A stretch of 64,000 nucleotides of DNA from Kiritimatiellia bacterium (GTDB lineage Bacteria; Verrucomicrobiota; Kiritimatiellia; RFP12; UBA3636), in the NCBI GenBank assembly GCA_045589455.1, contig JAZNPC010000060.1, forward strand, positions 1,506-65,505, given 5' to 3'. Below the pieces are notes generated by a model that had not been told where the DNA came from, ran no database searches, and saw only the letters and a program-made list of their open reading frames with translations. Positions 59,295 through 63,829 of the stretch are shown piece by piece. Each line of letters starts with the position of its first letter. Positions within the stretch are counted from its first letter, which is position 1. Both the position numbers and the translations under genes were made by a program.

Positions 59295-59975
59295 ATGAAG
59301 AAAATATCAATATTGTTTGCCGTAGCAATCGCTATGATAAGCACAGCTTCATTTGCAAAAACAAATCCACATAAAGGTGAAGCCATTTATGTTGAAGAGA
59401 TTATAGAAACCATGGTTCAAATTCCTGGTAAAGATTATCTTATGGGCAAATATGAGGTAACTCAAGCCCAATGGCAATCAATAATGGGTAACAATCCTTC
59501 ATATTTTACAGGCGATTCATCTCGTCCAGTAGAGTGTGTTTCATGGTATGATTGTCAAGAGTTTATTGAGAAGCTTAACGCTCGAGCAGAAGTAAAGCAA
59601 GCAGGCTTAACCTTCTTCCTACCAACAGAGGAGCAATGGGAGTATGCTTGCCGTGCAGGAGGCACAGGTAAGTATGGCTTACTTGCAGATGGGCGAGATG
59701 GCTCCCTTGATGAGATGGGGTGGTATAAATATAATTCAGGAGACGAAACGCATCCAGTAGGACAGAAGAAACCCAATGTATGGGGGTTATACGATATGCA
59801 TGGTAATGTGTGGGAGTGGACAGCGTCGGCAAATGGTTTTTTCCGTTTTAACCGTGGTGGTAGCTACTATCATGATGCGTCTGTCTGCGAGTCGGATTTC
59901 AGGAACTGGTTCAGTCCCGATTACAGGTGCAGCTACCTCGGCTTTCGCCTCGTCGCCTCTAGGACAGGTTATTAA
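59295..59975 (+). CDS. Secreted FGE-sulfatase (SUMF1 / C-type-lectin-fold) domain protein; candidate DGR variable protein
   Basis: Signal peptide, then YEVTQAQWQ, VSWYDCQEF, LPTEEQWEYACRAG, GLYDMHGNVWEWT and a C-terminal RGGSYYHDASVCESDFRNWFSPDYRCSYLGFRLV. Confidence 0.85.
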   Translation: MKKISILFAVAIAMISTASFAKTNPHKGEAIYVEEIIETMVQIPGKDYLMGKYEVTQAQWQSIMGNNPSYFTGDSSRPVECVSWYDCQEFIEKLNARAEVKQAGLTFFLPTEEQWEYACRAGGTGKYGLLADGRDGSLDEMGWYKYNSGDETHPVGQKKPNVWGLYDMHGNVWEWTASANGFFRFNRGGSYYHDASVCESDFRNWFSPDYRCSYLGFRLVASRTGY

Positions 59976-60078
59976 CTGTGCTAAAAGAAAAGAGGAGGCG
60001 AAGCAAGCGGTGCAAATAAAAAGCACCGCAAGCAAGCCTCCGATAAATGTTTTTCAACCCGTCAAAAAGGTTGAAAAA
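59974..60078 (+). repeat. Copy B of the double-hairpin 3' module
   Basis: It starts inside the stop codon. The ggaggcgaagcaagcggtgc-aaataaaaa-gcaccgcaagcaagcctcc core is identical to copies A and C. The second hairpin ttttcaacc/ggttgaaaa lacks a T-run. Confidence 0.8.
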
Positions 60079-60336
60079 TAAGGTAATTAAACAAAGAAGC
60101 GTGAGATTACATCTATCCGTAGAAAGCTTGTTCAGCAGGCAGAGCAAGTGAAAATGAATGCAGAGCTAGCTTAAATAACAGAACTAAAGGATGTACTAGG
60201 AATAATTCAAGACCTTATGCTATAAATTGATGAGGATCCAGAAAAGCTAAACCTTGATGATTTAACATCCGAAGACCCTAACGCTAAACGCAATAAAGCT
60301 GTGTCATATTTTTTAAGTAAGTAATAAGGAGTAATA

Positions 60337-62724
60337 ATGAGAACAAATAAAAAAATACTATTGACAATATTGTCTGGATTTATATGCTTTGGACAAGTAT
60401 TTGGGCAAACAGATGAGCAAAAAGCAGCTGCGGAACGCCAAGCATTCTTCGATGAATATTGGAATGAATTAGCATCTAGAATAAACGAGCGTATAACATA
60501 TAAGGACAGAGAAGAATATTTACAGGCTGTAAAATCGCAACTATTGCATGACAATAATGATGGAACGGTTTTATTAGATGAATTTGCATCTGAATATTTG
60601 CCTAATACTTTTGCTAAATATGAAAAGGCACGTGAAAAGTCATTAGAGATTGGACAAAATCTTAAATCAGTCTTTACAAAACCATTAGATGATAATTCAC
60701 CAGAATGGCCTAGCTATATAAAGGCGACAGAAAAGTATTGTCAAATCCTTTGTGATGAAAAACGAATCCAGAATGGAATTTCATATATTTATTTATTCCA
60801 TAAGGTTGGAGCAATGAGTGATGATATGCTCGCTGAGCTTGATAAATCAGAAAAAATGAATTTTTGGTTTGAGATTGATTTTAAGCATGATTTAAATCAA
60901 TACCAAATAAAGAAAGTGGAAGGAGTTATGGAATTTGCGCAAAAGAATATGCCAGAAACCTTTGCTCTATTAGAAGCTTTTGAAAAAGAAATAAATGAAA
61001 CAAAAGTGCAGTTTGATGGAATATATGCAGAGGCAGAGAAGCAAAATTATTTCCTAGGAAATACAACACACCCAGTCTTTGTCGCATTTGAGTTTAAATA
61101 TAGAAAAACAATAGAAAAATATAATACCATAATGCAGCAAGTAAAGAATCTTCAGGTTGAGCATTTGCTTTTAGAAGTAACAGGAGATGATTTGGCTTCA
61201 CAAGATATCAAAATCGCTAAAGAGTATAAAGCCTTTAAAGATTCCTTACCAGAATTTGTAAAAACTAATGCACATAAGGGTGTAGCCTTATATGTTGAAG
61301 AGATTATAGAAACCATGGTTAAAATACCAGGAAAAGATTATCTTATGGGTAAATATGAGGTAACTCAAGCTCAGTGGCAATTAATTATGGGTGAAAATCC
61401 ATCGTATTTCAAAGGCGATTTATCTCGTCCTGTAGAGCAAGTTTCATGGAATGACTGTCAGAAGTTTATTGAGAAGCTAAATTCTTATTCCAATGAAGCT
61501 GGGTTAACCTTCTTCCTGCCAACCAAAGAGCAATGGGAGTATGCTTGCCGAGCAGGAAGCACAGGCGATTGGGGATTACTTGCTGATGGCTCAATGGGTA
61601 CACTTGATGCTATGGGCTGGTACGAAAATAATTCAGGACGCAAGACGCATCCAGTGGGGCAAAAGAAGCCAAATGCTTGGGGCTTATACGATATGCACGG
61701 CAATGTGGGGGAGTGGACTGCCTGGGAGTACCGCGACTATAACCCCATCTACTGTGGCGGTGGCTGGGATGATAGCGCTTGGTTTTGCAATACTGGCAGC
61801 GGGAGCTACAGCAACCGTGACCGCAAGTTAGACGGGGACGACGATCTCGGCTTCCGCCTCGCTGCTCGGCGTATAGTTGAATTAGTTATAAAAGCCAAGT
61901 GTGATGGAAAGTTTATTTCTGGTGAGGATTTAGTCCAATTAGGTGGCAAGCAATATGACATAGGAGAAGCTTTTGAAGTAATTGATGGAACTAACTATGG
62001 TGATGCAGAAATTAGATGCAACATAGGAGGAAAGAATTATTCAGGGCAAGTATCTATAGGCAAAGTTACGTGGAAAGGCACAAAGGAATTTGTCGTTGAC
62101 TTAAAAGAAATAAAAGAGCAACCAAGGATAACGGTAGCGGGCATAGAAATGGTACGCATACCAGATAATGCTACCCATAAAGACTTGTACTTTGGTAAAT
62201 ATGAGGTTACTCAGGCTCAATGGCAAGCAATAATGAGTAATAATCCTTCATGTCATGAAGGCGATTCATCTCGCCCAGTGGAGTTTGTTTCATGGTATGG
62301 TTGCCAAGAGTTTATTAAGGAGCTAAATGCTCGTGCGGATGTAAAGCAAGCAGGGATCACATTTAGATTGCCAACAGAGGAAGAGTGGGAGTATGCTTGC
62401 CGAGCAGGAAGCAAAGGCAAGTATGGCTTTCTTGCAGAAGGGCGAGAAGGTTCTCTATACGAGATGGGTTGGTATTGTGATAATTCAGGAGACGAAACGC
62501 ATCCAGTAGGACAGAAGAAGCCAAATGCATGGGGGTTATACGATATGCATGGCAATGTGTGGGAGTGGACTGCCTCAGCTTATGGTTCTGGCCGTTTTAA
62601 CAAAGGTGGTAGCTACTTTAATTTTGCGTCTTACTGCGAGTCGGATGAAAGGGGCTGGGACGATCCCGATGACGGGTACTACAACCTCGGCTTCCGCCTC
62701 GCTGCCTCTAGGACAGGAAAATAA
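60337..62724 (+). CDS. 795-aa secreted protein: unique alpha-helical N-terminal region, FGE domain A (aa ~318-512), a linker domain, and FGE domain B (aa ~598-795); candidate DGR variable protein
   Basis: Signal peptide. There are two complete FGE-sulfatase domains, each with ..YEVTQAQWQ.., ..EWEYACRAG.., ..GLYDMHGNV.EWT.. and ..LGFRLAA.. Domain A resembles the 59295 gene and domain B resembles the 30313 gene. Confidence 0.85.
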   Translation: MRTNKKILLTILSGFICFGQVFGQTDEQKAAAERQAFFDEYWNELASRINERITYKDREEYLQAVKSQLLHDNNDGTVLLDEFASEYLPNTFAKYEKAREKSLEIGQNLKSVFTKPLDDNSPEWPSYIKATEKYCQILCDEKRIQNGISYIYLFHKVGAMSDDMLAELDKSEKMNFWFEIDFKHDLNQYQIKKVEGVMEFAQKNMPETFALLEAFEKEINETKVQFDGIYAEAEKQNYFLGNTTHPVFVAFEFKYRKTIEKYNTIMQQVKNLQVEHLLLEVTGDDLASQDIKIAKEYKAFKDSLPEFVKTNAHKGVALYVEEIIETMVKIPGKDYLMGKYEVTQAQWQLIMGENPSYFKGDLSRPVEQVSWNDCQKFIEKLNSYSNEAGLTFFLPTKEQWEYACRAGSTGDWGLLADGSMGTLDAMGWYENNSGRKTHPVGQKKPNAWGLYDMHGNVGEWTAWEYRDYNPIYCGGGWDDSAWFCNTGSGSYSNRDRKLDGDDDLGFRLAARRIVELVIKAKCDGKFISGEDLVQLGGKQYDIGEAFEVIDGTNYGDAEIRCNIGGKNYSGQVSIGKVTWKGTKEFVVDLKEIKEQPRITVAGIEMVRIPDNATHKDLYFGKYEVTQAQWQAIMSNNPSCHEGDSSRPVEFVSWYGCQEFIKELNARADVKQAGITFRLPTEEEWEYACRAGSKGKYGFLAEGREGSLYEMGWYCDNSGDETHPVGQKKPNAWGLYDMHGNVWEWTASAYGSGRFNKGGSYFNFASYCESDERGWDDPDDGYYNLGFRLAASRTGK

Positions 62725-62838
62725 CTGTGCTAAAAGAAAAAAGGAGGCGTAGCAAGCGGTGCAAATAAAAAGCACCGCAAGCAAGCCTCCGAAAAATGTT
62801 TTTCAACCCGTTTTAAGGGTTGAAAAACCAAATTTTTT
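62723..62838 (+). repeat. Copy C of the double-hairpin 3' module (second hairpin is the terminator at 62799-62838)
   Basis: Same core as copies A and B. tttttcaaccc (62799-62809) / gggttgaaaaa (62817-62827) plus T6. Confidence 0.85.
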
Positions 62839-62983
62839 GATGACAATATGAGCCAATTTAAAATTTTCTTTGTCCCACATATAACCTGTTTCTAATCTAA
62901 TATTAGAACAAAAATCTGTTAACACATTGAGTTAGTATTCTTAGGAAGAAAACCCAATGTGTTTTTTTGTCGCTGACGCTCTG

Positions 62984-63530
62984 GCCTTCGGCGAAACGCG
63001 GAGAAAAAAGAGGCTCGGAGACACGGAGGTATTCTGGGGTAATTGTAGTGATTGCTTGCACAATTCTCCACGTCTCCGCGTCTCCGTGTTAAGCGTAAGC
63101 AATAAGTGCAACGATTAGCATAGTCCTCCTTTTCCTCCGTGAGAATCACACTTCGTGTGTCCGTGTTAGGCGAAAGCAATGAACGAAAGTGATTTAAACG
63201 CTCTTGCTCAAGCCTTCGGCGAAACACGGAGAATAAAGAGAACGGAGACACGGAGGGGTTTGGGGGTAATTGTAATGGTTGTTAGTATAGTTCTCCCTTG
63301 TCCTCCGTTCTCCGTGTTAGGCGTAAGCAATAAGTGTAACGATTTAAACGCTAACGCTTGAGCCTTCGGCGAAACACGGAGCACACGTAGTGTGGTTTTC
63401 AAGAGAACGGAGACACGGAGGGGTGCTTGGGATTGTTAGAATAATTGCTTGCACAATTCTCCTTTGTCCACCGTAAAAATCACACTATGTGTGTCCGTGT
63501 TGAGCGAAAGCAACGAGTGCGAAAAAGGGA
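62984..63530. repeat. Array of three 150-230-nt structured palindromic units (gccttcggcgaaacRcggag ... aacggagacacggagg ... cctccgtKctccgtgttaRgcg)
   Basis: Unit starts at 62984, 63212 and 63362. Each carries long-range complementary arms, e.g. 63374-63395 (aacacggagcacacgtagtgtg) vs 63481-63501 (cacactatgtgtgtccgtgtt). A fourth, truncated copy is at 1-60. Confidence 0.75.
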
Positions 63531-63829
63531 TGCTGCGACGCGGAGGACGCAGCGGACGAGATTAGACGCGAGACAACCGATAGACAATTAGACGATAGAC
63601 GTTGAACGGACAATAAGACGATTAGACGCGAGAATGGAGAAAAAACCATTCAACCCTACCTAAATTCTTCATTCTTCATTTTTCATTCTTCATTTATTAT
63701 AATGCATCGCCTCCGCGTCCCTTCTTCGCACTTTTAGCCCCCACGTGCATCACATAGCCCCACGTGCATCACATAGCCCCACATTAAAGCAAAAAATCCC
63801 GTGGGTTAATCTTGCGGGATTTTTTTTTC
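63517..63829. repeat. Right arm of the long inverted repeat (partner of 58565-58930)
   Basis: Reverse complement of the left arm, with an extra ~58-nt cgtcta-word insertion (63560-63625) and a duplicated 19-nt unit ccacgtgcatcacatagcc. Confidence 0.8.
63791..63828 (-). terminator. Terminator hairpin of the convergent downstream gene
   Basis: A6-tcccg-tgggttaatcttg-cggga-T9. Same stem as the pckG terminator. Confidence 0.7.

Follow-up and report, generated by a model that had tools for sequence, protein, structure and literature searches.

How can 35 codons at the end of a gene differ so sharply from those at the end of its neighbour when the sequence just ahead of them hardly differs at all? 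The question is raised by positions 59832-59936 of a 64,000-nucleotide (nt) stretch of DNA from a Kiritimatiellia bacterium (assembly GCA_045589455.1, contig JAZNPC010000060.1), here called the window. An earlier note, made from the letters of the window, had placed this block in a gene for a 226-amino-acid (aa) protein with an FGE (formylglycine-generating enzyme) domain, had paired it with a similar block at 62581-62685 in an adjacent 795-aa gene, and had suggested that both were written by retrohoming from a single template repeat (TR). Here, we report that 59832-59936 is, with high probability, the hypervariable core of a variable region (VR, 59823-59967) of a diversity-generating retroelement (DGR), written from a template common to three VRs in the window.

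The block (105 nt, NGFFRFNRGGSYYHDASVCESDFRNWFSPDYRCSY) indeed lies in frame, at the 3' end of the open reading frame (ORF) 59295-59975, and aligns gap-free and column for column with 62581-62685, sharing its invariant and variable columns as had been claimed. A third copy at 30907-31011, in a 245-aa gene (ORF 30313-31050), aligns to it in the same gap-free manner, and the targets in the window consequently number three rather than the two first proposed. The genes and repeats concerned are the following.

59295-59975, + strand: 226-aa target gene (ORF; Pfam PF03781, E=1.6e-31; solved structure 2Y3C, E=1.2e-28)
59823-59967, + strand: VR of the 226-aa gene, the span homologous to the TR of relatives (L017/L020)
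59832-59936, + strand: probable hypervariable core of that VR (17/37 A vs 3/93 non-A sites changed; pN/pS)
60337-62724, + strand: 795-aa target gene (ORF; PF03781 in two stretches)
61723-61865, + strand: VR-like block in the middle FGE domain of the 795-aa gene, of a different or decayed template family
62572-62716 (core 62581-62685), + strand: second VR, of the same template family as the first (17/37 A vs 6/93 non-A)
30313-31050, + strand: 245-aa target gene, 29 kb upstream (ORF; PF03781, E=1.9e-33)
30898-31042 (core 30907-31011), + strand: third VR, of the same template family (21/37 A vs 3/93 non-A)

Block and scaffold were contrasted in the three pairwise comparisons among the 226-aa, 795-aa C-terminal, and 245-aa copies. 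Differences fall at codon positions 1/2/3 as 14/12/2, 10/13/1, and 14/12/3 in the block, against 14/9/39, 15/13/54, and 17/12/45 in the scaffold (Fisher p = 5e-7, 3e-8, and 2e-6), while silent differences per silent site (pS) amount to 0.02-0.06 in the block and 0.42-0.62 in the scaffold, and the ratio of replacement to silent differences (pN/pS) to 6.0-11.5 and 0.17-0.24, respectively. Sliding windows of 20 codons switch abruptly at the block boundary, and the ~100 nt before it (catccagtagg...tgggagtggac) are nearly the same in all copies, which bears out both the near-identical upstream scaffold and the sharply localised difference of the earlier account. Low pS inside the block and high pS outside it indicate that these genes are old paralogues whose silent sites have been reset to a common source only inside the block. 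Replacement sites in the block are scrambled while the silent ones are reset, a pattern far beyond chance.

The window holds four FGE domains, namely one in the 226-aa gene, a middle and a C-terminal one in the 795-aa gene, and one in the 245-aa gene, and the comparison across three domains that had been suggested stands for the three block-bearing copies, all of which show the discontinuity, and fails for the middle domain of the 795-aa gene. The block there (61723-61845) is not common to the other three, with pS of 0.70-0.77 and pN of 0.48-0.53 against them; it is rich in NNC/NNT codons with the same depletion of third-position A as the VRs (A=1 and C=22 of 41 third positions in 61723-61845; A=46 and C=22 of 156 in the scaffold), and it has only the GC-rich tail in common with them (CTCGGCTTCCGCCTCGCTGC; given also as CTCGGCTTCCGCCTCG). 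The whole stretch, 61723-61865, does not fit the TR described below, is internal to the protein, and is not followed by a hairpin; it may represent a decayed VR or the target of another template.

The 226-aa protein begins with a signal-peptide-like N-terminus (by eye), followed by one domain of the FGE-sulfatase / C-type-lectin fold (PF03781 spans residues 45-220 of 226). Its top solved-structure match is the Treponema denticola variable protein TvpA (2Y3C), in an alignment that runs through the VR, so that the fold and the C-terminal position of the VR are those of known DGR targets of this kind; true FGEs match it weakly in comparison (E 1e-5 to 1e-3). By analogy with TvpA, a binding role is more likely than catalytic FGE activity, and the VR would form the ligand-facing C-terminal end of a secreted protein of C-type-lectin type. 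In the 795-aa protein, an unassigned N-terminal part of 300 aa (NCBIfam returned no match for it) precedes the middle FGE domain, a linker, and the C-terminal FGE domain, and the 245-aa protein carries a lipoprotein-type signal (by eye) before its FGE domain.

A source for the blocks was predicted from three VRs of the window together with one common to contigs L001/L002 and one from L007, five distinct VRs in all, with every variable column set to A and the remaining columns to the consensus base. A protein search with the two other open frames of this predicted TR led to P0201, a spurious 96-aa antisense ORF on the ENA contig L017 (504 bp), a metagenome contig of a relative, and there the predicted TR is present verbatim; VRs alone can thus suffice to predict a TR, and spurious ORFs in other frames can then make it retrievable from protein databases. 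Over 130 nt it reads GCGTCGGCTAATGGTTCTAACCGTATTAACCGTGGTGGTAGCTACTATAATAATGCGTCTAACTGCGAGTCGGATAACAGGAACTGGAACAATCCCGATAACAGGAACAACAACCTCGGCTTCCGCCTCG in the relatives' assemblies. On L017 the VR homology begins exactly at GCGTCGGC and stops at CTCTAGCACAG, and seen from the window side, homology to the TR of L017/L020 likewise opens at GCGTCGGC and closes at CTCTAG(G/C)ACAG, the sequences beyond both ends being unrelated. The same TR occurs in L020-L024, and that of L019 differs by two substitutions (CAT and CGG at two codons), which makes the TR identical in six of seven contigs from different samples. When translated in the VR frame, the TR matched TR-encoded mini-ORFs of other FGE-type DGR families, which were set aside as not belonging to this one.

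Upstream of the TR, L017 shows the 3' end of another gene and no FGE scaffold, and longer contigs reveal that this gene encodes a reverse transcriptase (RT). The TR begins 1 nt past the stop codon of the 332-aa RT, which matches Pfam RVT_1 (E=1e-17), carries the motifs PIGNLSSQ and YMDD, matches phage RTs in tblastn (records of Bordetella, Vibrio, and Faecalibacterium phages among them), and finds its top PDB match (E=1.4e-36) in 8UB7 and related entries, a 328-aa 'Reverse transcriptase'. We take the latter to be the Bordetella bRT; a literature search for the code 8UB7 gave no result. Directly upstream of the RT gene and overlapping it, the relatives have an HRDC-domain gene (PF00570, E=6.4e-15), itself preceded by the final codons of a target gene and a two-hairpin module. 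The cassette order in relatives is target with VR, hairpins, HRDC, RT, and TR, with HRDC-RT-TR carried by both L019 and L020; a DGR-clade RT beside its cognate TR was found in these two relatives and not within the window. No contig was obtained with both the TR and a full VR, the last one (P0203) reaching past the TR downstream and not upstream.

Another FGE-type DGR family was encountered on L015 (138-1308) and L016 (2-1503), where a target VR, an HRDC gene, a 175-aa gene of unknown type, and a TR-encoded ORF (P0122) are followed by a ParE/Phd pair and SecA, with no RT on the visible part.

Adenine specificity was assessed by comparing each VR with the canonical TR of L017/L020 over 130 nt (37 A sites and 93 non-A sites). 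The 226-aa gene VR (59823-59952) is changed at 17/37 A sites and 3/93 non-A sites (Fisher p = 1e-8), the C-terminal VR of the 795-aa gene at 17/37 and 6/93 (p = 6e-7), and the 245-aa gene VR at 21/37 and 3/93 (p = 2e-11), while relatives' VRs (L001, L007, and L018) are changed at 15-18 of the 37 A sites and at none of the 93 others. In 20 metagenomic homologues, each with a distinct VR, residues are changed at 281/460 codons containing A, and only 9 of these 281 are unreachable by A-only substitutions; the corresponding 10/400 at codons without A is partly circular, given that the set was picked by a match to at least 18 of 20 fixed codons, a choice that does not affect the reachability figure. 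An invariant TR, variable VRs, and differences restricted to A together make up the DGR signature. The different, non-A-biased donor that would have spoken against the earlier account of the 226-aa copy did not appear, since the relatives' TR stands beside a DGR-type RT and the changes concentrate at its A sites. The further expectation, that every variable column be compatible with A in one common template, was largely borne out by the verbatim TR on L017, the few non-A changes including two codons of the 795-aa gene, AAA and GAA, to which we return below.

The sequence at and beyond the end of the VRs supplies further features.

59937-59967, + strand: GC-rich VR 3' end, CTCGGCTTTCGCCTCGTCGCCTCTAGGACAG, resembling an initiation of mutagenic homing (IMH) element (conserved after all window VRs and in relatives)
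59994-60041, + strand: hairpin 1 after the 226-aa VR (6-bp and 7-bp stems, internal loop, 9-nt loop)
60050-60078, + strand: hairpin 2 after the 226-aa VR, TTTTCAACC...GGTTGAAAA (alignment, fold)
62743-62838, + strand: two-hairpin module after the 795-aa gene (62743-62790 and 62791-62838; -30.9 kcal/mol, z = -7.3)
29179-29299, + strand: orphan two-hairpin module with no target gene in front (repeat family D6; alignment, fold)

The 16-nt 3' flank CTCGGCTTYCGCCTCG occurs four times in the window against 0.01 expected, and the VRs end in the form CTCGGCTTYCGCCTCG(YN)GCCTCTAGGACAG. A fixed difference separates VRs from TRs here, with CTCTAGCACAG in all seven TR contigs and CTCTAGGACAG in the VRs of the window, L001/L002, L007, and L018, and all three window VRs carry the same marker, G where the TR has C. 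Judged from sequence, this is the kind of difference that gives directionality (IMH versus IMH*), and we regard it as a candidate element for that role. The stretch 59976-60085, with both hairpins, folds as DNA at -24.6 kcal/mol (z = -7.6), and by analogy with BPP-1 (PMC3240598) hairpin 1 is a candidate target-recognition hairpin or cruciform. Hairpin 2 at 60050-60078 is without a T-run; the other window copies (29253-29297 and 62791-62838) have one and look terminator-like. The two-hairpin module lies downstream of more than 10 relatives' targets and is absent after the TR, the segment 62687-62837 being 92.8% identical over 153 nt to the stretch before HRDC in L019; the 245-aa gene is followed by a different hairpin, not the common module. 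An Rfam scan of the window gave no match.

Hairpin 1 comes in two forms. In the window (59994-60041 and 62743-62790) its 5' arm, GGAGGCG.AGCAAGCGGTGC, leaves an internal loop, and in L007 (7475-7520) and L018 (238-283) the 5' arm GGAGGCTTGCTTGCGGTGC yields a perfect 19-20-bp stem; the middle 8 nt of the arm are reverse complements between the two forms. The orphan module at 29179-29299 adjoins a 455-aa ORF (27721-29088) that looks like a UDP-glucose dehydrogenase by eye, and in L007 and L018 the target gene P0012 precedes sequence homologous to that downstream of this module.

Taken as a process, these parts would work as follows. The invariant TR would be transcribed, and the DGR RT, together with the HRDC-domain accessory protein, would copy it while misincorporating opposite adenines only; the cDNA would then replace the VR, with the GC-rich VR 3' end and the downstream hairpin guiding the targeting. 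One template would in this way have written at least three VRs in the window (59823-59967, 62572-62716, and 30898-31042), which would make the system a DGR of the kind known from TvpA of Treponema denticola, acting in trans on multiple targets. Writing from a single TR, as the earlier note had it, hence fits one A-rich template, with a larger set of targets than that note had counted.

The window lacks the machinery, and the site where relatives carry it lies next to the 795-aa gene.

62838-62873, + strand: empty core site (junction alignments with L019 and L017)
62874-62967, + strand: segment homologous to post-TR sequence (91.6% identity to L019 1828-1922, in cassette orientation; also L017)

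Several observations weigh against the reading of these blocks as products of a DGR, and in particular of one at work today. Within the window, 64 kb of a 70-kb contig, blastn (word size 7) found no TR beyond the VRs, only the four FGE domains, a motif scan found no open frame with an RT-type YxDD, and tblastn with the relatives' RT and HRDC proteins gave no match, so that the TR used throughout comes from other assemblies. At 62838-62873 the window retains TATGAGCCAA, the first 9-10 nt of the relatives' HRDC ORF, and then joins the post-TR segment. The hypervariable block is the same in L001 (3292-4050) and L002 (633-1391), although their scaffolds differ at 16/606 positions, and one 250-aa homologue (P0016, L003-L006) is identical in 27 contigs from many samples. 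The VR of the 795-aa gene contains two non-A changes, CGT->AAA (62599-62601) and AAC->GAA (62647-62649), that A-mutagenesis of the canonical TR could not produce, and hairpin 1, with its 9-nt loop and internal loop, is unlike the 8-bp stem with GRNA tetraloop of BPP-1.

Some of these points bear on when the DGR acted. The missing piece at 62838-62873 amounts to ~1.67 kb with HRDC, RT, and TR, and the same junction recurs in L001, L002, and L003; this junction argues that the adjacent core was deleted in the lineages of the window and of these three, its never having been inserted being less likely, and the unchanged blocks point to VR stasis in the core-less relatives. One may therefore suppose that the core once stood after the 795-aa gene, was deleted with none left elsewhere, and left three frozen VRs that now change by ordinary mutation, an account that concerns present-day activity only and gives the block the same identity as ours. 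The empty junction, the stasis, the 3, 6, and 3 non-A changes in the window VRs against none in relatives' VRs, and the precedent of T. denticola isolates that have targets without RT or TR (PMC4891356) all favour it. Nevertheless, pgm identity among the lineages with the empty junction is only 83-84%, while at non-A positions their VRs keep 94-100% identity to the TR and block pS stays at 0.02-0.06; with ~16% divergence in pgm, loss of a sole core before these lineages split is hard to reconcile with such identity, as it would predict much more silent drift in the VRs, and the view is limited to 64 kb of the genome. We accordingly rate frozen relics as a serious contender, somewhat short of an even chance, and lean slightly towards a core that persists elsewhere in the genome. 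This combination could reflect a second core at another place, a locus that has moved horizontally, or repeated gain and loss. In the window, pckG and pgm are 96.6% and 84% identical at the nucleotide level to those of a syntenic Kiritimatiellae metagenome-assembled genome (MAG), with pckG and its neighbours in the same order, indicating that the two are related and belong to different species.

The other alternatives touch the identity of the block itself. Each VR might have had its own template, from different TRs or DGRs with the same scaffold by chance, which would accommodate the AAA and GAA codons of the 795-aa VR, the more so as TR alleles exist (CAT and CGG in L019) and the middle domain clearly belongs to another family; alleles do vary at the CGT codon concerned (CAT in L019), yet none has AAA among the contigs compared. 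We consider separate templates very unlikely: across 130 nt, a single TR agrees with each of the three VRs at 87-90 of 93 non-A positions, the 3' marker is common to them all, and our searches brought up no second TR family with this scaffold. Diversifying selection at ligand contacts of paralogues, with gene conversion homogenising the rest, would need no retroelement at all, could by itself raise pN/pS, and would sit well with a window that holds neither RT nor TR. Selection does not explain, however, why near-zero pS is confined to the block, why changes are limited to the adenine sites of a non-coding sequence that was found independently beside an RT, or why residues unreachable by A-only changes are nearly absent, and given the TR in L017, the A-site test, and the reachability counts, a reading without a retroelement is effectively refuted. 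We thus retain a DGR VR written from one shared template as the identity of 59832-59936.

It seems unlikely that, in a genus of gut Kiritimatiellae, the core behaves as a presence/absence module with one fixed chromosomal site, an idea prompted by several species that have the same empty junction and keep targets with VRs nearly TR-like at non-A positions. If so, the diversifier or whole target loci would be repeatedly gained and lost or horizontally re-seeded across species, the mutator would be present only in some cells or strains while all carry targets, and orphan hairpin modules would mark former or potential target sites.

Wider searches placed the targets among chromosomal genes. With N at all A and variable positions, the VR pattern was found in species-representative genomes in only two further VRs (L001 and L002, related MAGs) and with no TR; neither JGI metagenomes nor IMG/VR had a match to a slightly shorter VR pattern, and IMG/VR had none to the conserved 3' flank, the blanks in IMG/VR leaving nothing that points to a phage origin. 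An exact look-up turned up neither the window's own protein nor P0005. The neighbourhoods of four homologues (P0016, P0012, P0019, and P0026) contain no RT nearby, their targets being scattered among housekeeping genes, and a 6-kb gene-free stretch in L010 that was considered as a cassette has instead the ORF pattern of a ribosomal RNA operon. At the pckG locus the number of targets varies: downstream of pckG, L004 (10001-14949) has FGE-type genes of 250, 461, and 237 aa, in contrast to the single one of other strains of the species, and the three differ in VR family while sharing the GC-rich tail.

In the window, the 226-aa and 795-aa genes lie in a 5.3-kb island flanked by long inverted repeats (58565-58924 and 63522-63826; sub-blocks of 46-83 nt, 77-98% complementary), each arm of which includes a terminator-like hairpin. 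Short intergenic repeats, such as GCCTTCGGCGAAAC(A/G)CGGAG...CGGAGACACGGAGG, occur at 1-52, 29400-30160, 58560-59100, and 62950-63720, without an Rfam match in the window, and families of such repeats also surround the DGR core or targets in L001, L002, L017, L019, and L020. Farther off, a 753-aa ORF (25372-27633) has, by eye, the look of what we take to be a MurC (UDP-N-acetylmuramate-alanine ligase)-MurB fusion.

Together, these results add, in a lineage of Kiritimatiellae from animal guts, a clear case of an HRDC-type DGR that serves several FGE-fold targets; our literature search found no paper linking DGRs with Kiritimatiellae. The results further suggest that such bacteria use one template to diversify several lectin-like binders, secreted or of lipoprotein type. 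How DGRs work is not seen differently through these VRs, as multi-target, remote-target, and FGE-target DGRs are already known (PMC5758913); an empty core site beside VRs that still look freshly templated offers a case for studying DGR core loss, upkeep in trans, and re-acquisition.

Among known systems, FGE-sulfatase proteins with C-terminal VRs are the largest category of DGR targets ('b'; Wu et al. 2018, PMC5758913), and targets that are non-adjacent or carry tandem domains have been described, one gene with three FGE domains among them (PMC5758913); unlike FGE-target DGRs in general, the window lacks the core at its usual site. The BPP-1 DGR (Mtd / TR / Avd / bRT), in which an IMH and a downstream hairpin or cruciform define the target (Guo et al. 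2011, PMC3240598), is similar in its A-specific TR-to-VR differences, in a GC-rich 3' end of the VR unlike that of the TR, in a hairpin just past the end of TR/VR homology with none at the TR, and in its RT, inasmuch as the relatives' RT is homologous to the 328-aa PDB RT and Bordetella phage records are among its tblastn matches. It differs in serving a single phage tail-fibre gene, whereas the system described here appears chromosomal, multi-target, and trans-acting, in having Avd instead of HRDC, in that the TR lies downstream of the RT here, and in its 8-bp stem with GRNA tetraloop in place of a 9-nt loop with internal loop or, in some relatives, a perfect 19-20-bp stem.

The known system nearest to this one is the TvpA DGR of T. 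denticola, which comprises TvpA and six further FGE-type targets with an HRDC accessory gene in 'Architecture C' (PMC5758913; PMC4891356), and in which one TR serves up to seven remote targets and some isolates keep targets without RT and TR (PMC4891356). The two differ in phylum (the window being syntenic with a Kiritimatiellae MAG), in the two-hairpin module, in one target that has two FGE domains, the C-terminal alone fitting the TR, and in cassette order, the accessory gene lying between TR and RT in T. denticola (PMC4891356) and the order here being HRDC, RT, and TR; since 14 HRDC DGRs show 11 architectural variants (Wu et al. 2018, PMC5758913), such order is not strictly defining for this type. 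The likeness, which rests on targets and accessory gene, lies in small secreted or lipoprotein targets of the FGE-sulfatase / C-type-lectin fold with a C-terminal VR (2Y3C, E=1.2e-28), in HRDC rather than Avd as the accessory gene (here in relatives), and in a single TR with several non-adjacent targets, some genomes having the targets and no core.

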